From the NCBI GenBank assembly GCA_044336985.1, contig JBIIOK010000004.1, positions 1 through 57,447 on the forward strand: a DNA stretch of 57,447 bases, in the 5' to 3' direction. The notes under the pieces are model-generated. The model did no database searches. It was not told the DNA's origin and worked only from the letters and a program-made list of their open reading frames with translations. Of this stretch, positions 18,308-32,901 are shown piece after piece. The stretch is from Pirellulales bacterium. GTDB taxonomy: Bacteria; Planctomycetota; Planctomycetia; Pirellulales; UBA1268. The first letter of the stretch is position 1. Every line of letters begins with the position of its first letter. The translations under genes and the position numbers were made by a program.

Positions 18308-18319
18308 AGCCTGCCCTAC
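18298..18319 (-). repeat. Family A GTAG-REP variant containing both convergent stop codons
   Basis: ggcaggctgaagcctgccctac; TGA 18305-07 (+) and TAG 18316-18 (-). Confidence 0.85.
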
Positions 18320-20164: not shown

Positions 20165-20386
20165 CGATTTCTCCGGTGAAAGTTGGGCTGAAACGCGGCC
20201 CCGCCCGGCGGTCGCTACTGTATGTCCTGAGTCTGCCTGCAATTTGCGTCGAAGGCAAGTCTTCAGCATGCCTTCTTGTTGGGGAGAGAGTTGGTGAGAG
20301 GCTGGGCGATTTGGCAAGGGAAAGGTTGCGAGGCTAGACTGATGGAATCCTGGTGATCTTCGGTGATCTTCCTCGAGGGGATCTTT

Positions 20387-21055
20387 ATGTCCGGTCTCGC
20401 TGCCGCGGCCCAGATCTCAGCCCCGTCGCGGTCGCTGCCGGGGGCGCTCAGCTTGAGCGTGCTCGTGCTGAACCGGTCGTTCGTGGCCGTGCACATCACC
20501 AACGTGCGGCGGGCCATCACGCTGCTTTTCCGCGAGCTCGCCGAGGTCGTGCATATCGAGGAGGGGCAGTATGCCGCCCACTCGCTCGATTCCTGGCGGG
20601 AACTCTCGTCGCTCCAGGCGGCCTTTCGCACGCCCGACCAAGACTGGGTGCAGGCCGTCGGTTACGAGCTTCAGGCCCCCCGGGTGATCAGGCTCGTGTC
20701 GTGCGACCGCGGCCCCCGCCAGGGACTGCGGTTCAACCGCCGCAACGTGTTCGCCCGCGACGGCAACCTATGCCAGTACTGTGGCCATCACTTTCCCACG
20801 AGCGAGCTGTCGCTCGACCACGTGGTGCCCCGCAGCCGCGGCGGCAACACGAGCTGGGAAAACATCGTCTGTGCATGCGTGGCCTGCAACGTCCGCAAGG
20901 GCGGTCGCACGCCTCAGGAGGCGCGGATGCAGATGATTCGCCAGCCCATGAAGCCGAAACGCAGCCCGCTGCTCACCATCAAGCTCGGCAACCCGAAATA
21001 CCAGAGCTGGAAGAGCTTCGTGGACAACGCCTACTGGCTCGCCGACCTGCGGTAG
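20387..21055 (+). CDS. HNH endonuclease (McrA-like, standalone)
   Basis: [40 protein letters not shown]. Confidence 0.92.
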
Positions 21056-21733: not shown

Positions 21734-22345
21734 ATGGCCGTCGGTCGCGAGTCTGAATCGAGTGGTCCCCCGAGGCAGGAGGGGGGGGGTGCGTCTCCGC
21801 AGGACCTCGACCTCGTGCAGGGCTGCCTCGCAGCGAGCCCGGGGGCCTGGGAGGCGCTGGTCGGCCGCTACGCCGGCCTGCTGGCCCATGTGGTCGATCG
21901 CACCACGTCGCAGCGACGGTGGCCTCTCGCCTCGGCCGACCGCGATGACTTGATCGCCGAGGTGCTCGTCGAATTGCTCAAGAACGACGCCGCGGCGCTG
22001 CGGGGATTCGCCGGCCGCTCCACGCTTGCCGCCTACCTCACCGTGATCGCCCGCCGCGTGGTGGTGCGTTCGCTGTGCCGCGATGGGCAGGCAGCGCAGC
22101 CGGCCCATCGCGTTGAGCCGGCGGCATCGCGCAGCGAGCAACGAGACATCGCCGACCGCGAGGAGATCGAGGTCCTGCTCGGCAGGCTCGACGATTCGGA
22201 TGCGCAGCTCGTGCGGCTGCACCACCTCGAATCCAGAAGCTACGGCGAGATCAGCCGGATCACCGGCCTGCCGATCGGCTCGATCGGCCCCGCGCTCTCG
22301 CGGGCGAGGCAGAAGATGCGCGAGGGTGCCGCGGCGGCGGGCTAG
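21734..22345 (+). CDS. ECF sigma-70 factor
   Basis: AWEALVGRY, DDLIAEV, YLTVIARR; region 4 SYGEISRITGLPIGSIGPALSRAR. Confidence 0.9.
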   Translation: MAVGRESESSGPPRQEGGGASPQDLDLVQGCLAASPGAWEALVGRYAGLLAHVVDRTTSQRRWPLASADRDDLIAEVLVELLKNDAAALRGFAGRSTLAAYLTVIARRVVVRSLCRDGQAAQPAHRVEPAASRSEQRDIADREEIEVLLGRLDDSDAQLVRLHHLESRSYGEISRITGLPIGSIGPALSRARQKMREGAAAAG

Positions 22346-27633: not shown

Positions 27634-27702
27634 GGGGATGGCCTCGACTATTGTTGCGGGGGCTGTGCCGGTATTCTTTCCGGCGAAATGTAGCAAACAG
27701 CG

Positions 27703-27768
27703 AAGGAATCAGCGCCACCCAGCCGTCACCCAAGCGTCACCCAAGCGCCACCCAAGGAATCAGCGCCA
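27703..27768 (+). repeat. 4 x 11-bp tandem repeat between two 15-bp direct repeats
   Basis: cgccacccagc, cgtcacccaag, cgtcacccaag, cgccacccaag at 27713-27756; aaggaatcagcgcca at 27703 and 27754. Confidence 0.8.
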
Positions 27769-28973
27769 TGAAAGAGCACGAACTCGTCCGCGAACTCGCC
27801 GAGAAGAATTCCTCCAAGATCGTCATGCTCGTGGCCGACGGGCTGGGCGGGTTGCCTATGGAGCCGGGCGGCAGGACCGAACTCGAGACCGCCTCCACCC
27901 CCAACCTCGACCGGCTCGCCGCCCGTGGCACGAGCGGGTCGAGCGTGCCCGTGCTTCCGGGCATCACGCCGGGGTCGGGGCCCGGCCACCTGGGTCTCTT
28001 TGGCTACGACCCGCTCGAATTCAAGATCGGCCGCGGCGCCCTGGAGGCCACCGGGATCGGCTTCGAGCTCGGCCCGGACGACGTGGCCGCCCGCGGCAAT
28101 TTCTGCACGCTCGACGCCGGCGGGCTGATCGCCGACCGCCGCGCCGGGCGGATTCCCTCGGAGGAGAGCTTCAAGGTCATCGAGCGGCTCCAGGGGGTGA
28201 AGATCGATGGGGTCGAGACGTTCGTGAAGCCCGTGAAGGAGCACCGATTCGTCGTCGTCTTCCGCGGAAAAGGTCTCGATGGCGGCGTCGCCGACACCGA
28301 TCCGCAGGCTCTGGGCGTGGCCCCGCTCGATCCCCAGCCGCTCACGCCGGCCGCCCGGCGGACGGCCGAGGTGGCCGCAGAATTCGTCCGGCAGGCGCGG
28401 GCGATTCTCAAGAGCGAGCCCAAGGCAAACGGCCTCGTCCTCCGTGGATTCGCGGCCAAGCCGGCCCTGCCGACCTACGAGCAGCTCTACGGACTCCGGG
28501 CTGCGGCGATTGCCGTCTACCCGATGTACAAGGGGCTGGCTCGGCTCGTTGGGATGACGCTCGTGGGCAAGGCCCAGTCGCTCGACGAGCAGATCGACGA
28601 GCTCGCGAAGTGCTGGAACGACTACGACTTCTTCTTCCTGCACTTCAAATACACCGATTCCACCGGTGAGGACGGGGCGTTCGAGCAGAAGGTGAAGCGG
28701 GTCGAGGAGCTCGATCGCATCATCCCGCGGATCGAGAAATTGCGGCCGGACGTGCTGATCGTCACGGGCGACCACTCGACGCCGAGCCTGCTCAAGAGCC
28801 ACAGCTGGCACCCCGTGCCGACGCTGCTCTCGGCCAACACCTGTCGCCCCGATGGACTGACGAAATTCTCCGAGCGAGAGTGCCTCCGCGGCGGCTTCGG
28901 CATCTTCCCGGCCAAGCACTTGATGCTTTTGGCCATGGCCCACGCGCAGCGGTTTGGCAAGTACGGGGCCTAG
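27768..28973 (+). CDS. apgM: 2,3-bisphosphoglycerate-independent phosphoglycerate mutase (ApgM type)
   Basis: DGLGG, TPNLD, PGSGPGHLGLFGYDP, GRGALEA, DRRAGRI, TGDHSTP. Confidence 0.93.
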   Translation: MKEHELVRELAEKNSSKIVMLVADGLGGLPMEPGGRTELETASTPNLDRLAARGTSGSSVPVLPGITPGSGPGHLGLFGYDPLEFKIGRGALEATGIGFELGPDDVAARGNFCTLDAGGLIADRRAGRIPSEESFKVIERLQGVKIDGVETFVKPVKEHRFVVVFRGKGLDGGVADTDPQALGVAPLDPQPLTPAARRTAEVAAEFVRQARAILKSEPKANGLVLRGFAAKPALPTYEQLYGLRAAAIAVYPMYKGLARLVGMTLVGKAQSLDEQIDELAKCWNDYDFFFLHFKYTDSTGEDGAFEQKVKRVEELDRIIPRIEKLRPDVLIVTGDHSTPSLLKSHSWHPVPTLLSANTCRPDGLTKFSERECLRGGFGIFPAKHLMLLAMAHAQRFGKYGA

Positions 28974-28994
28974 TAGGACAGGCTTCAGCCTGTC
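28973..28994 (+). repeat. Family A REP overlapping the last base of the apgM stop
   Basis: gtaggacaggcttcagcctgtc. Confidence 0.9.
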
Positions 28995-29008
28995 GACGGC
29001 AAGCCTAC

Positions 29009-29103
29009 TGGGGCGAATCGCTCCACCCTTGGTCGCCGGCGCTGGGGCGATTCGCTCCAGCGCCGGTCGCCAGCGACCAGCCCGGCTGGAGCGAATCGCC
29101 TCG
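29009..29103. repeat. Three copies of a 17-bp palindrome
   Basis: tggggcgaatcgctcca (29009), tggggcgattcgctcca (29043), tggagcgaatcgcctcg (29087). Confidence 0.7.
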
Positions 29104-29232
29104 TCGACATTTTTGTGCGTCTTCCCCCGGCGTGGCTTTAGAAAAAAATCGACGACGACAAACGGATTTTTCTCGGCCTGCATCCGCTTTCTTCGCCTTC
29201 CGGGCGGCGATGTTGCAGGGCCTCAGGCGGAA

Positions 29233-29250
29233 TTGGCACGCCATGTGCAT
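29233..29250 (+). promoter_or_regulatory. Sigma54 -24/-12 promoter
   Basis: tTGGCACGccatgTGCAt; GG-N10-GC spacing exact, one mismatch to TGGCACG-N4-TTGCW. Confidence 0.75.
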
Positions 29251-29347
29251 TTCTTGAACGCGGCGAGGGGCAACACGACCTCGCTCGCCGGTGGTTTGAA
29301 CACCGCGGCGCGGCTGGTTTTGGAACGCCTGTTTCAGGAGAACGCTC

Positions 29348-29461
29348 ATGAAGTCCTCTGTCTCGGTGCCATCGACGAACCGTTGGTCGCTCACGCGGGC
29401 CGACGTCGTGCTTTGCGCGCTGCCGATTGCCCTGTTTCTGTCGATCGTTTCGCTCGTCTGA
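29348..29461 (+). CDS. 37-aa small membrane peptide
   Basis: Below ORF-track cutoff; AGGAG 7 nt upstream; MKSSVSVPSTNRWSLTRADVVLCALPIALFLSIVSLV. Confidence 0.55.
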   Translation: MKSSVSVPSTNRWSLTRADVVLCALPIALFLSIVSLV

Positions 29462-29525
29462 TGTCGTGACTGCTGTTCGTGGTTCTGGTGGTCCTGCTGG
29501 AATGACAGAAGTGAAAGGATGCCCA

Positions 29526-29942
29526 ATGCCTCGTTGCCGTAGTTCGTTCCTGTCCCGCGCCTCCCGCGCATTTTCGTCGCTGGCGGTCAGTTGCGTGTTG
29601 ACGCTCCTGACGCTCCTGTTTTTGACGCTGGGATTGCTGCAAGACACGCACGCTGACGGAGTTAACGTCGGGGTGGTGAATGCCGCGATCCCCGCTGTCA
29701 CGGTGCCGGATATCGATCGGGCGGTAAGGCCTGTCGTCTGGCAGTCAACGCAGTCTCGCGAGGCGATCACGCTACCCTGGATTTCCCGCCGGGGAGTGTC
29801 GCCCCGCAGCAAGGAGAGTCCGGCAAGGGAGCTGTTCGGCCTTTCAAAAGTCGCTTTTCCCCTGCTGGTGAGTGACGTGGTGCCGGCCGATGCATCGGCC
29901 AGATCCGAGGTGATGTCGGGCCGCACCGTTGGGGTGCGATAG
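29526..29942 (+). CDS. Hypothetical protein with signal peptide or TM helix
   Basis: AAAGGA RBS; basic N-terminus followed by VLTLLTLLFLTLGLL. Confidence 0.5.
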   Translation: MPRCRSSFLSRASRAFSSLAVSCVLTLLTLLFLTLGLLQDTHADGVNVGVVNAAIPAVTVPDIDRAVRPVVWQSTQSREAITLPWISRRGVSPRSKESPARELFGLSKVAFPLLVSDVVPADASARSEVMSGRTVGVR

Positions 29943-30003
29943 CGGTCCCGTTCGTTCAATCCATCGAAATCTCTTCATTGAAATCGCAACTTGGAGCATG
30001 CTC

Positions 30004-30528
30004 ATGAATACGGTCAACCCAAACAATAACAATGCGACAGGTAATCGCAGTTCGCTGAGGGCGCTGGGGATCAACGAGATCGTCATCGTCGATCCCTCCT
30101 GCGACCGCTATAGCGACTTCGTGCAGGCCGCGCAGGCCGGCGACGTGGGGCTCCACTTCTGCTGCGACGGCCGTTCGGCAGTGCGGATGGCTCGGCGCTT
30201 CCGCGCCGACGTCTGGCTCGTGAGTTCCGAGCTGCAAGACATGTCCGGCTTCGATCTGCTCGAGATGCTTTCTCCGCATGTCGTACAAGGAAATGTCGAC
30301 CCGATGCTGGCCGGATCGCGGATTTCGCTTGGTCGGATTGGCGAGGCGGCCCGTTCGGCTGTCTTCATCGTCGGCGATGAATATCGCCTCGAGGAGGAGC
30401 AGCGGGCATTGGCCTCCGGCATCGCCGGCTATCTCGTTCGCCCCGTCACGCTCGACGTGATCAGGGCCACGCGGTCGCCGGCCGATTCCTCGTTGCTGCC
30501 GATCTCGATGCCCGTGACACAATCGTAA
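30004..30528 (+). CDS. Atypical (pseudo-)receiver domain protein 1
   Basis: IVIVDP, DGRSAV, ADVWLVS, DMSGFDLL, GIAGYLVRP; phospho-Asp position is Ser, Lys is Arg. Confidence 0.78.
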   Translation: MNTVNPNNNNATGNRSSLRALGINEIVIVDPSCDRYSDFVQAAQAGDVGLHFCCDGRSAVRMARRFRADVWLVSSELQDMSGFDLLEMLSPHVVQGNVDPMLAGSRISLGRIGEAARSAVFIVGDEYRLEEEQRALASGIAGYLVRPVTLDVIRATRSPADSSLLPISMPVTQS

Positions 30529-30642
30529 GCCAAGGTTCGTTCCTGTCCGGCTCGTCTGGTTCTTGTCCGTCTTTTCTCTTCTTTGATCTGCAGCCCGTTT
30601 GACTTGTCTTTTTGGGGATAGGGTTTTTTGGGGGATTTTCCC

Positions 30643-31176
30643 ATGAGCAGTGCCGCGCACACGCGGAACGATGCCGTTTCCGGCATGTCCAGTTCCATGG
30701 TCCCGAATGTGGTCGTCGTGGACCCGCACTTTGAGTCCTATAAGCCTCTGGCCGCCAGCGCCCGGCTTGGGAAGTTGAACCTGCATCTCCGCTCCAGTGG
30801 CGTCGATGCCCTGAAACTCGCTCAACACCGTCGAGTGGATGCCTGGCTCGTCGCGCTCGAGCTCGACGACATGTCCGGGCACGACTTTCTCGAACTTCTG
30901 CAGTCGCGGCTGGAGGGCTCGAAGGCCGCGATCGTCCAGACTGTGGAAAGTCGTGGCCGCGATAGGGACATCGCCGTTCGCGAGGCGGCCGAGGTGGGAG
31001 CGGATTCGCTCCTGTCGGCGCCGATCACGTTCCGCGACCTGGAGCGGCTGCTCGGTTTGGTCGGTGCTGGCCAGAGGCCCCTTGCAGACGATTCTGATAC
31101 CATTCGGGCATTCGTGACGTTGCCCGTCGGCGTTGGCGCCGCGGTCGTTGCCATCGCCGTTTTGATGATGGGCTAA
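30643..31176 (+). CDS. Atypical (pseudo-)receiver domain protein 2 with C-terminal TM anchor
   Basis: VVVVDP, SGVDAL, VDAWLVA, DMSGHDFL, GADSLLSAP; hydrophobic tail VGVGAAVVAIAVLMMG. Confidence 0.78.
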   Translation: MSSAAHTRNDAVSGMSSSMVPNVVVVDPHFESYKPLAASARLGKLNLHLRSSGVDALKLAQHRRVDAWLVALELDDMSGHDFLELLQSRLEGSKAAIVQTVESRGRDRDIAVREAAEVGADSLLSAPITFRDLERLLGLVGAGQRPLADDSDTIRAFVTLPVGVGAAVVAIAVLMMG

Positions 31177-31220
31177 TTGCCAGTCAAGGAGTCTCGGTCC
31201 TGAGTCGTTGCACAGGAATC

Positions 31221-31454
31221 ATGTGTGCCATTGCAGCGCTCGCCCTGCTCACGCCTGGCGGGCGTGTGCATGCGCAGAATGACTGGCAATACCCCGACCC
31301 GTATTTCGGGATCCTCGAGATCGAAAAGTCGCGGCGTCCGGCGGCCGTTCGACGGTATGACGCCGAGGCCAGGCCCGGCCCGAAGCCGCAGGCCCAAGCC
31401 CGGCCGCCCCGTTTGTTTCGTCCGCGTCCCGTCAAGCGATCCGCGGGCCGCTGA
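31221..31454 (+). CDS. Small secreted basic hypothetical protein
   Basis: AGGA upstream; signal-like VHA-Q; NDWQYPDPYFG then Arg/Pro-rich tail. Confidence 0.5.
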   Translation: MCAIAALALLTPGGRVHAQNDWQYPDPYFGILEIEKSRRPAAVRRYDAEARPGPKPQAQARPPRLFRPRPVKRSAGR

Positions 31455-31465
31455 AGAGCCAGGGC

Positions 31466-32815
31466 TTACCAACGGGTCTCGACGCCGAGGCCGCCCAGGT
31501 CGGCCATCGGCAGCGGCACGACGCTCACCTCCATCCCGCCGAAATGGAGCTCCGTATTGCTGACTGCCCGCGAGCTGGCCCACGCGAGGTACCAGCCGAG
31601 GAAGACCTGCGACGGGAAGTGTGAATCGGTCGTCATGCGCGAGAATCCGACGAACGTCGAGCAGACGTAGAGCGCTCCCTTTGCCAGCGGGCTCTCCACC
31701 ATGTCGGCCGCCGCAAGGAATGGGATCGCTCCGACGAAGGCATGGCCGCTCACGCCGTTGTCATCCTGGAAGAACTTCCACTGGCTTCCGGCCGAGCTGT
31801 TTTCGAGGGGACGCGACGCACCGGTGGCCAGCTGCATGACATAGACCGGCGGCGCGCCGACGATGAACATGCGCAGTGAACGCGAGCCCCATTCGCCCAG
31901 CACGTCGCCGCCAGGCTGGCCCTCGAAGACGAGCCCGGTGAGGCCCGCCACGCCGAAGATGGCCAATGCATACCGCCCCTCGCCGATATCCTTGCAGCCC
32001 CGGAAGAACGTGCCGACATCGGTGGGTTCCACGCTTTGTTGCCAGGCATCCTGCATCGTCATGTCGAAGCCGGTGTTGGCCATCAAGGCGCCGGCGCCGA
32101 AGGCACCGGTGATGCAGACGAGGCTTTCGCAGGAATAGAAGTTGCGGTAATCCTCCAGCACCTTGTAGCCGAACCGCGCCGCCCGCGGATGCTTGCTATG
32201 GGCCCACGGGGGCTCGTTGCGAGCGGCGAGCATGCTCTCCCCGGTGAGCGGCGGCAGTGAGTAGACCGGCTCCGTCGTCGGGGCCATTCGCGCGGCGAAT
32301 TGGGTGGTGATGTTCCTCCTGTCGCCGTTCCATGAGGCGGCGGGCCAGCCGCCGGTGAGTTCCACTCGGCCGGGGACGTCGGCCTCTTGGGCCGCGGCGA
32401 TCGCCTGTGTCTCGACGATCACATCGATCCAGGCTCCGTGTGCGGTGGGGACGACACGCACGACCACCCGCTGCCGTCGCGGTGGCCAGGCCGCCGCGGC
32501 GATCGGCAGCGATCCCGGCGCAGGGGGTTCACCGGGTGGCTCGACCCAGGCCGATTCGATGACGCCCTCGCGGGGCGGCGTCGACGTGAAGTCGGGCTCG
32601 ACCGCCCGCACGATCGGCCAGTCGGTGGCAACCGTGGCCAAAGTCTGCCGCCAGAGGAGCCTGCCGTTCTCGCTCGGCAGGAACATGCCCCCGGCATCTT
32701 CCGCGGCGGGGGTCGCCGGCGGCTCGTCGGCCCAGGCGAGCGACGCGGAGATTGCGATCACGAGCGCCGATAGCGCCGCGCGCGCGAACGCCGATCGCTT
32801 CACCGCGTCGAACAT
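31466..32815 (-). CDS. PAP2-family phosphatase with long exported N-terminal region
   Basis: SRP, SGHAF, SRMTTDSHFPSQV; signal peptide ending AWA; ATG 32836 also possible. Confidence 0.82.
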   Translation of the reverse strand: MFDAVKRSAFARAALSALVIAISASLAWADEPPATPAAEDAGGMFLPSENGRLLWRQTLATVATDWPIVRAVEPDFTSTPPREGVIESAWVEPPGEPPAPGSLPIAAAAWPPRRQRVVVRVVPTAHGAWIDVIVETQAIAAAQEADVPGRVELTGGWPAASWNGDRRNITTQFAARMAPTTEPVYSLPPLTGESMLAARNEPPWAHSKHPRAARFGYKVLEDYRNFYSCESLVCITGAFGAGALMANTGFDMTMQDAWQQSVEPTDVGTFFRGCKDIGEGRYALAIFGVAGLTGLVFEGQPGGDVLGEWGSRSLRMFIVGAPPVYVMQLATGASRPLENSSAGSQWKFFQDDNGVSGHAFVGAIPFLAAADMVESPLAKGALYVCSTFVGFSRMTTDSHFPSQVFLGWYLAWASSRAVSNTELHFGGMEVSVVPLPMADLGGLGVETRW

Positions 32816-32901
32816 GTGGAACGGATTGGGGGGCATCGGTGGGGGGGGGAATGTCCCAGCCGACGCCCCGCGGGGCAAGGCGTTTTTGGGGCCTGAAAAC
32901 A

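Follow-up and report, generated by a model that had tools for sequence, protein, structure and literature searches.

A conserved sigma-54 transcription unit of freshwater Planctomycetota encodes a microprotein and two receiver-fold proteins that lack the phospho-acceptor aspartate

We analysed a 57,447-nt stretch of DNA (the window), which is contig C239 of a Pirellulales genome bin of 2.84 Mb that is 85% complete and 67% G+C. Positions 28977–31454 are almost certainly a real, conserved sigma-54 transcription unit, made up of three phased palindromes, an A/T spacer, a −24/−12 promoter and five genes, here called p1, p2, REC1, REC2 and p5. REC1 and REC2 have the fold of receiver (REC) domains, and we hold it equally close to certain that neither has an aspartate at the phospho-acceptor position. 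They are most likely phosphorylation-independent, membrane-tethered adaptors that possibly feed back on the activator of their own operon. The parts of the unit are of known kinds, namely sigma-54 promoters with enhancers, PspF-like activators, pseudo-receivers and membrane microproteins, and all five proteins are already in public collections as called open reading frames (ORFs), under generic automatic names only.

Promoter and upstream palindromes

An earlier reading of the sequence (the original prediction) had described a near-consensus −24/−12 promoter followed by five co-oriented ORFs, and both were borne out. The promoter, TGGCACGCCATGTGCA, is the sole match without mismatch to TGGCAC-N6-TGCW in the window and is one base off TGGCACG-N4-TTGCW, its GG lying at 29235–36 and its GC at 29247–48. 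The five ORFs, read from the ORF list and translations, all lie on the + strand between the iPGM gene and the gene for a PAP2-domain protein (Table 1), and they are conserved genes, p2 in close relatives only.

For comparison, 59 loci were collected by a pattern scan with one genome per species, all from Planctomycetota or Pirellulales bins, and were searched for promoters with up to two mismatches, GG and GC being kept. A −24/−12 match was present within 260 nt upstream of 44 of 55 p1 copies, against a background of 0.036 matches per 270 nt (139 matches in 1,035,460 nt; all loci, both strands). In a variant with a single REC gene the promoter lies ∼500–600 nt upstream of p1, ahead of an extra gene; once these further-upstream promoters were counted, 51/59 loci had one. 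Seven of the eight remaining loci are cut by a contig end, and L050 had no promoter at the scan stringency.

The enhancer, which the original prediction did not list, is a 15-bp palindrome whose family-wide form is GGRGCGAWTCGCYCC and which is present in three copies in the window. All 51 promoters tested had one to three copies (two in 32 promoters, three in 13, one in 6), at about −100 to −235; the exception in position is L009, with palindromes at −81 and −38, where the weak promoter pick may be wrong. Distances between copies cluster at 22–23, 31–34 and 42–45 nt, and spacings of ∼22, 33 and 44 nt place the copies on one face of the helix. When one mismatch was allowed, the palindrome matched 108 times in 14,988 nt of upstream windows versus 4 times in the remaining ∼502,700 nt, and those 4 matches likewise adjoin operons. 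A single match was found in 141,283 nt of unrelated loci of the same family, and the sole cluster in the window's own genome is the region upstream of the operon. Between enhancer and promoter lie A/T tracts, whose best 30-nt window reaches 67% A+T in this genome of 67% G+C; like tracts are found in most of the 51 promoters, with a median best window of 0.60 A+T.

The sigma-54 promoter put forward in the original prediction is thus supported by its conservation, by the upstream enhancer and by the gene content of the genome, which has rpoN (a PF04552 match of 207.9 bits on contig C126) and at least 12 activator genes (12 strong PF00158 matches). No sigma-70-type internal promoters were found in the operon. 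The 5′ leader (29261–29360) gave no signal of RNA structure (z = −0.04), an Rfam scan returned two microRNA matches only, which is chance level, and the terminator-like sites numbered 4 versus 2.9 expected, none of them at a gene end. The T-rich character noted earlier is also real: AT skew falls to −0.35 in the operon stretch, G+C across 29200–30800 is 0.60–0.61 versus 0.67–0.72 in the flanks, and G+C at third codon positions (GC3) is 0.74–0.75 in the operon versus 0.85–0.95 in the adjoining genes.

Table 1. Features of the sigma-54 unit and its two neighbours (positions in the window)
Feature	Position	Strand	Description
iPGM (phosphoglycerate mutase) gene	27651–28973	+	Upstream neighbour of the five-gene unit
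REP-like palindrome GACAGGCTTCAGCCTGTC	28977–28994	.	4 nt past the iPGM stop; upstream edge of the regulatory region
Enhancer (upstream activating sequence, UAS) copy 1 GGGGCGAATCGCTCC	29010–29024	.	−224 from the −24 element
Enhancer copy 2 GGGGCGATTCGCTCC	29044–29058	.	−190; 34 nt from copy 1
Enhancer copy 3 GGAGCGAATCGCCTC	29088–29102	.	−146; 44 nt from copy 2
A/T tracts GAAAAAAATC ... GATTTTTCTC	29141–29174	.	Between enhancer and promoter; candidate bend or IHF-type site
Sigma-54 −24/−12 promoter TGGCACGCCATGTGCA	29234–29249	+	Start expected near 29260
p1, predicted tail-anchored microprotein	29348–29461	+	37 aa; GGAG 8 nt upstream; C-terminal motif LTxxDxxxCxxPxxxFLSIVSLV-stop
p2	29526–29942	+	138 aa; N-terminal hydrophobic segment (signal peptide or anchor); variable member of the operon
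REC1, predicted soluble pseudo-receiver	30004–30528	+	174 aa; S74 at acceptor position; conserved unmodelled insert 93–117
REC2, pseudo-receiver	30643–31176	+	177 aa; A71 at acceptor position; predicted C-terminal membrane anchor 157–175
p5, predicted secreted basic peptide	31221–31454	+	77 aa from ATG; possible CTG start at 31200
PAP2-domain membrane protein gene	31466–32830	−	Downstream neighbour, convergent

Receiver-fold proteins without an acceptor aspartate

The receiver fold that the original prediction had assigned to both proteins was recovered by modelling and by structure comparison. Against Pfam Response_reg (PF00072), REC2 scored 30.2 bits, exactly the gathering cut-off, and REC1 23.4 bits, below it. 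AlphaFold2 models made from family alignments were (βα)5 for both proteins, with cores at a predicted local distance difference test score (pLDDT) of ∼90. The REC2 model matched solved receiver domains with template modelling (TM) scores of 0.76–0.81 (Foldseek), and the REC1 model matched receivers with Z 14.9 and a root-mean-square deviation of 2.2–2.8 Å over 114–123 residues (VIA-align). At E ≤ 0.001, REC2 had 573 relatives among 2,449 candidates.

At the acceptor position, the end of β3, REC1 has serine and REC2 alanine (Table 1). A joint alignment of the family gave S24/A19/N2/G1 in this column for REC1 (n = 46) and A in 60/60 for REC2, and hence Asp in 0/106; no alignment restored one, and six distant relatives have N or S. 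The loss of the acceptor, originally claimed for the two receivers, extends through the family. Of the V-D-P motif said to be shared by the receivers, the first pocket Asp (the D of 'VVD') is invariant (113/113), but the P at the second acidic position, present in 57/60 REC2 sequences, occurs in only 11/46 of REC1, with A/S and others elsewhere, and is no rule for the family. The conserved Lys is indeed missing from REC1 (R45/H1, n = 46) and from the REC2 of the window, which has A; the column varies among REC2 relatives, however, and K is kept in 6/60.

REC2 ends in a conserved C-terminal helix with a hydrophobic 19-mer (Kyte–Doolittle 2.43), in agreement with the tail anchor ascribed to one of the receivers, and REC1 is without such a 19-mer (best 1.33). 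The insert of REC1, 25 residues long (window 30280–30354), has invariant G96, V98, D99, P100, G104, S108 and L109 and lies outside the modelled fold at pLDDT <50. Its sequence, VVQGDVDPMLAGSRISL, can be aligned to the β3–α3 stretch at the active site of the RcsC receiver and looks like a partial duplication of it. High conservation in a segment that is not modelled is typical of segments that fold on a partner. In a tree, REC1 (99/96) and REC2 (100/99) form sister clades with the distant relatives outside, the single-REC variant forms a subclade of REC2 (100/99), and the branches of REC1 are far shorter than those of REC2.

The small products p1, p2 and p5

The hydrophobic 19-mer of p1 (residues 19–37; Kyte–Doolittle 2.47) runs to its last residue. 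All 54 p1 copies retrieved end in FLSIVS[LF]V-stop, a few with I or L last, and an alignment of 27 sequences has L15, T16, D19, C23, P26, F30 and S35 invariant, the N-terminal half being free to vary. Variability across the final 23 codons was 0.175/0.068/0.304 at first, second and third positions, and synonymous codon differences outnumbered non-synonymous ones (10,980 versus 7,834); since the copies were chosen by protein motif, these figures show constraint at the protein level and not an unbiased rate. When 1.84 billion proteins were searched with a p1 profile, 79 cluster representatives matched (E ≤ 0.001); almost without exception these have 33–118 residues and match at the extreme C-terminus. 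With protein-level conservation in 55 copies, a constant end residue and a constant partner gene, p1 is a clean case of a microprotein.

The hydrophobic 19-mer of p2 covers residues 20–38 (Kyte–Doolittle 2.44), and p2 was detectable in 16 of the 42 loci with two REC genes, all of them closer relatives. In p5 and its relatives a hydrophobic leader precedes the junction A-x-A|QNDWQ[YF]PDPYFG, which is strictly conserved, whereas the Arg/Pro-rich tail varies. The expected mature N-terminus is QNDWQYPDPYFG, perhaps in pyroglutamate form; the CTG that may serve as an earlier start lies 8 nt past AAGGAG. Neither p2 nor p5 gave a Pfam or NCBIfam family or a usable ESM Atlas lead. Judged from their sequences, p2 and p5 would be exported, and p1 and REC2 would be anchored by their tails with the bulk of each protein in the cytoplasm.

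Transcription

Assembled contigs from lake metatranscriptomes (three runs, from three studies) were 90–99% identical to the operon region and covered 29269–29527, 29274–29424, 29488–29764, 30301–30568 and 30545–30610 joined to 30700–30750. None reached upstream of 29269. The earliest contigs start at 29269 and 29274, 9–14 nt past the expected start, although contigs cannot fix a 5′ end, and one contig spans the spacer between REC1 and REC2. The RNA agrees with transcription that begins near 29260 and continues from REC1 into REC2, neither of which a depth of 2–4 can prove; the parts without cover (29765–30300 and 30751–31454) are uninformative. Run X18 gave the same contigs in the same places as run X19 (222- and 234-nt records) and was not counted; the two belong to different studies and library types and are probably one data set filed twice.

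Distribution and variant loci

The search for homologues and neighbourhoods called for in the original prediction showed that the gene order is conserved. By tblastn with the window proteins, the order p1…REC1-REC2 was found in 42/59 loci, whether or not p2 and p5 could be detected, and p1 followed by a single REC2-type gene in 10/59. Of the other seven, five are cut by a contig start, L040 has no detected p1 and L048 has p1 after REC2. Conservation is wide for p1, REC1, REC2 and p5 and confined to close relatives for p2.

Sampling of genomes placed the cluster in one family of uncultured freshwater planctomycetes. Only one other genome matched at E ≤ 1e-10 in an even spread of 400 genomes across the phylum. 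Among 300 genomes of the order, 21 of 33 from the window's family matched, including 7/7 of its genus and 11/11 of a sister genus, and ten genomes of other families gave weak matches. Genomes of the family are small (2–5 Mb).

A variant form of the module, seen in L030, L040, L044, L046, L049, L051, L052, L054, L058 and L059 (for example L054:5317–6471), has the same enhancer and sigma-54 promoter and one REC2-type protein predicted to be tail-anchored, and lacks REC1 and p5. These loci, save L044 and L046, first encode an exported protein of 120–160 residues that bears the motif 'FAWAGEDET' and a PEP-CTERM-like tail (PAPEPPALVLAG…RRR). A p1-type peptide, undetected in L040, and the REC2-type protein come after it. 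No NCBIfam match was found for these proteins at E ≤ 0.01, so the label 'PEP-CTERM-like' is a reading of the sequence only. Locus L011 (968–6468) has the whole unit twice in tandem (enhancer, promoter, p1, REC1, REC2), L030 (5956–7247) has two REC2-type genes in tandem, and several genomes hold two or more loci, such as G637 with five REC matches. Some loci are labelled Candidatus Kuenenia (L008, L016, L027, L035, L036, L040) or Planctomicrobium piriforme (L025, L031); their REC proteins nest among those of Pirellulales bins in the tree, so these labels look unreliable.

A candidate activator and distant relatives

The original prediction had remarked that no kinase or activator is adjacent to the operon. 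This is correct for ∼15 kb around it, where the neighbours are of housekeeping types, but an unlinked activator gene co-varies with the operon. It lies on contig C183 of the same genome (G000:C183:6552–7769), and its 405-residue product (P0121) consists, by Pfam, of an AAA+ sigma-54 interaction domain (Sigma54_activat) from residue 19, a lid and a Fis-type helix-turn-helix (HTH; HTH_8) at 342–383, with no regulatory domain.

Co-occurrence was assessed in 61 genomes of the family, in which orthologues of the activator (E ≤ 1e-140) are cleanly apart from paralogues (∼1e-70). Activator and REC were both present in 30 genomes (one orthologue being partial) and both absent from 27; 3 genomes had the activator only (G537, G702, G704) and 1, a 74%-complete bin (G716), had REC only. 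Contrasts also occur inside a genus: g293 and g295 each have a single genome carrying both and five carrying neither. As related genomes are not independent, this support is strong, not conclusive.

Further evidence came from the ten weak matches in other Pirellulales families, whose loci were fetched. Nine were kept, and L094 was dropped as an ordinary NtrC-type regulator with the Asp; L070, from another class, had no related context. All nine distant pseudo-receivers have N or S at the acceptor position, and in 6 of the 7 loci read first the gene follows a sigma-54-type promoter. An activator consisting of AAA+ and HTH only lies directly upstream on the same strand in 7/9 loci, and PEP-CTERM-type tails, found by regular expression, occur within 4 kb downstream in 7/9, two being confirmed by NCBIfam. 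The palindromes of these loci differ in sequence; L067, for instance, has three copies of TGTCCG-N4-CGGACA. With six of the distant activators as queries, the best match in the window's genome was the C183 activator in 6/6 cases, at 48–61% identity versus 37–50% for its paralogues. Co-occurrence and distant gene order together indicate that this unlinked enhancer-binding protein probably activates the operon through the palindromes.

The complete distant arrangement, seen in L064–L069 and L092 (for example L067:2174–5315), is a triad of a domain-less activator, a promoter with its own palindromes serving a soluble pseudo-receiver, and PEP-CTERM proteins; its pseudo-receivers have N or S at the acceptor position and keep the Lys. 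This triad may be an ancestral, simpler form of the window's system. Two short activators of G000 (379- and 360-aa frames; C225:16305–18169 and C61:13961–18557) also lie 1–4 kb from PEP-CTERM matches; in this organism, domain-less activators may thus place PEP-CTERM proteins under sigma-54 control as a general rule.

The 21 activator loci searched showed no sign of autoregulation, having neither an enhancer cluster nor a sigma-54 promoter. A membrane-anchored Peripla_BP_5 protein (UrtA/AmiC-type, E 1e-150) is encoded divergently from the activator gene (G000:C183:2894–6290, L071; also L072–L091), in 16/20 of the family loci examined, contig permitting, and a dCache-HAMP-MCP-signalling protein comes next. 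The pair was considered as a sensor and rejected, for genus g290 lacks both activator and operon and yet has orthologues of the binding protein.

Proposed mechanism and alternatives

The explanation that we favour as a whole, and to which we give a little less than an even chance, is a unit driven by the C183 activator with pseudo-receivers that feed back. Most likely, REC1 and REC2 signal through partner binding without phosphotransfer and make up, with p1, a membrane-tethered module. The C-terminal helices of REC2 and p1 would hold the two proteins next to each other in the cytoplasmic membrane, with REC1 as their soluble partner, and the three would jointly feed back on the domain-less activator. 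The receivers would in this way supply in trans the regulatory module that activators of the NtrC1/DctD type carry in cis, with a logic that can be likened to that of PspA on PspF, and sigma-54 output would reflect the state of the envelope or that of the co-expressed exported proteins. The feedback of a membrane-tethered REC/p1 module on the activator, taken by itself, is possible at a chance of about a third, and we give much the same chance, one in three, to the module being itself the output and handling exported proteins. The original prediction supposed that the receivers assemble a membrane complex; the co-varying activator offers an alternative, in which the pseudo-receivers may act on the activator and need not only build such a complex.

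A more specific version of the feedback, which we regard as rather unlikely, is a split, phosphorylation-independent NtrC-type switch, in which a receiver-less activator is ruled in trans by the receiver-fold proteins of its own target operon. One receiver would be tethered to the membrane beside the 37-residue microprotein and the other would be soluble with its conserved flexible insert, so that the state of the membrane or envelope, not a kinase, would set sigma-54 output; a simpler form, with a domain-less activator, a pseudo-receiver and PEP-CTERM proteins, would exist across several Pirellulales families.

Several points weigh against the explanation that we favour. No result demonstrates a protein–protein or protein–DNA contact, and the prediction of a complex between activator residues 1–270 and REC1 18–160, made from their own alignments, scored 0.14 against a mark of 0.32, which speaks neither for nor against binding. 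The adjacency of activator and receiver in the distant loci marks the pseudo-receiver as a target gene and is no evidence that it regulates the activator. In none of the 59 loci was an activator found within 6 kb, and the link to the activator is a co-occurrence among related, non-independent genomes, with the four discordant ones listed above. A weak search among longer proteins found no fused pseudo-receiver–AAA+ protein, only 2 generic hybrid kinases (E ∼1e-9). The membrane topology of p1 and REC2 was read from hydrophobicity alone, the tail of REC2 being modelled at pLDDT <40, and the RNA contigs, which are assemblies from close relatives, fix neither the 5′ end nor the strand.

One alternative, in essence the model of the original prediction, although we consider it doubtful, is that there is no feedback and that the pseudo-receivers and p1 are output adaptors, forming a membrane scaffold that sorts, anchors or displays exported proteins: p2 and p5 here, and those of the PEP-CTERM type in the variant and distant loci. 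Proteobacterial PEP-CTERM genes are known sigma-54 targets (PMC1569441). Exported proteins always accompany the pseudo-receivers, as p2 and p5 do in the window; a PEP-CTERM-like protein (by eye) stands upstream of p1 in 8/9 variant loci read, plus L054; the distant loci have the PEP-CTERM tails described above; and hydrophobicity puts membrane anchors on REC2 and p1. On the other side, p2 and p5 are without a PEP-CTERM domain, the variant proteins have no NCBIfam support, the window's genome (85% complete) gave no exosortase match, and a membrane segment is absent from REC1, which is better conserved than any other product. Receiver folds are, moreover, generally known for signalling, not for sorting. 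A secreted-peptide loop of the autocrine or quorum type, in which p5 is processed at A-x-A|QNDW and sensed by p1/REC2 or p2, with REC1 relaying to the activator so that a positive feedback loop is closed, seems improbable to us. It would account for the strict conservation of the mature N-terminus QNDWQ[YF]PDPYFG after a signal-peptide-like segment, next to a fast-evolving basic tail, and for the co-transcription of p5 with membrane and signalling-type proteins from a tight, activator-dependent promoter. Yet p5 went undetected in 10/42 two-REC loci and in 10/10 single-REC variants, p1 and REC2 end with their helix and have almost nothing outside, which makes them poor receptors for an external peptide, and Pfam, NCBIfam and the ESM Atlas gave no match to any known pheromone system.

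Phosphorylation by an unlinked kinase at another site, such as the Asp of L-x-D-M-S-G, D99 in the REC1 insert or Ser74, is very improbable. There are invariant acidic residues near the active site (D79 and D99 in REC1, D76 in REC2), the insert aligns to the RcsC active-site stretch, and the first Asp of the acidic pocket is invariant. Against this, the acceptor column lacks Asp in all 106 family members and in the 6 distant ones, the second metal-binding Asp is gone, and neither REC1 nor most of the REC2 sequences keep the Lys. The Asp of the insert that aligns with the acceptor is present in only 25/46 sequences, within a segment outside the modelled fold, and no linked kinase was seen in the window or in the flanking genes compared across the 59 loci. 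That the unit is non-functional, a chance promoter with small ORFs or a decaying accessory island, is scarcely credible: G+C and GC3 below the flanks, patchy presence within genera and a REC1 score under the Pfam cut-off would fit it, but gene order, promoter, enhancer, the 37-residue ORF and the p5 motif are conserved over 59 loci with protein-level constraint, and RNA contigs lie over the region.

Comparison with known systems

The Psp system of Enterobacteria consists of the activator PspF and the pspABCDE operon. The unit described here resembles it in that the C183 activator has AAA+ and HTH only, in the dedicated sigma-54 promoter with upstream sites and a candidate bend region, in a target operon of small membrane proteins and in the proposed logic of an operon product that controls the activator in trans. 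The activator is not PspF itself, however, as its match to the PspF model TIGR02974 (residues 25–383) reached 230.8 bits against a cut-off of 443.55. Nor was any PspA/IM30, PspB or PspC found among the five products (Pfam, NCBIfam, E ≤ 1); the candidate regulators here are receiver-fold proteins, the activator gene is unlinked, and the interaction is a proposal.

Activators of the NtrC1/DctD type have receiver, AAA+ and HTH in one chain. The same three modules are present here, and receiver structures of NtrC1 (1zy2 and 1ny5) are among the structural matches of the REC2 model. In contrast to these activators, the receiver is a separate polypeptide, present as two paralogues of which one is predicted to be membrane-anchored, it has no acceptor Asp, no partner kinase is evident and the weak search for fusions gave none. 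Among the known pseudo-receivers and atypical response regulators are AmiR, the N-domain of KaiA, FrzS and redox sensors of the RitR type, and a RitR-type entry (5u8m) was among the structural matches of REC2. The likeness is a receiver fold without acceptor Asp that acts, as we propose here, by protein contact. The known proteins, however, have output domains or belong to other circuits, and none known to us occurs as a stand-alone pair that combines a membrane anchor at the C-terminus with a partner microprotein and a sigma-54 enhancer of its own. A full-text literature search, with supplements and most subscription journals outside its scope, likewise turned up no paper that describes such a tail-anchored pair and microprotein under a dedicated enhancer.

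To our knowledge, almost nothing is known of sigma-54 regulons or of receivers in Planctomycetota, well studied as both are elsewhere. The locus offers an entry into planctomycete regulation: the promoter, the 15-bp enhancer, the five small products and the candidate activator can all be reconstructed in another host, even without cultures of the organisms. If the pseudo-receivers do act on the activator, this would be a new mode of control for enhancer-binding proteins and would show the re-use of two-component parts after the loss of phosphotransfer. The cluster belongs to abundant small-genome freshwater lineages, is transcribed in lakes and probably bears on the management of the cell surface.

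The PrsK/PrsR/PrsT system, which regulates PEP-CTERM genes in Proteobacteria, has further traits in common with the unit: short genes for exported proteins follow long intergenic regions with an activator motif and a −24/−12 sigma-54 motif, and its activator, too, was identified by phylogenetic profile (Haft et al. 2006, PMC1569441). PEP-CTERM proteins likewise follow the pseudo-receiver in the distant Pirellulales loci. PrsR has a canonical receiver and is paired with the kinase PrsK; the C183 activator has no receiver and scored 285 bits against the PrsR cut-off of 502.6. No PrsR equivalog was found in the window's genome, the best TIGR02915 match being 378 bits against the same cut-off, and PF09721 (exosortase, EpsH) had 0 matches, which in an 85%-complete genome does not prove absence. 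A link to exosortase and PrsR is thus unsupported for this genome, which nevertheless has 11 TIGR02595 (PEP-CTERM) matches, all outside p2 and p5. The system accordingly fails the defining tests of Psp and of PrsK/PrsR, as its receivers fail the phospho-acceptor test.

REP-like palindromes in the window

The palindrome at the upstream edge of the regulatory region belongs to a set resembling repetitive extragenic palindromic (REP) elements. The perfect 18-nt palindrome GACAGGCT[TC/GA]AGCCTGTC occurs at 12 sites in the window (18298, 19698, 21104, 21131, 28977, 33085, 33106, 33360, 38064, 38091, 51635 and 52884), which amounts to 24 strand matches where 0.21 are expected. The copies are frequently paired, with ∼20–27 nt between members, and the sites checked adjoin gene ends, lying a few bases from those at 18316, 28973, 33378 and 51653; the element could be a terminator or a genome-wide repeat. 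One pair (21104 and 21131) lies between an HNH endonuclease gene (20363–21052) and a fragment of an extracytoplasmic function (ECF)-type sigma factor gene (21734–22342).

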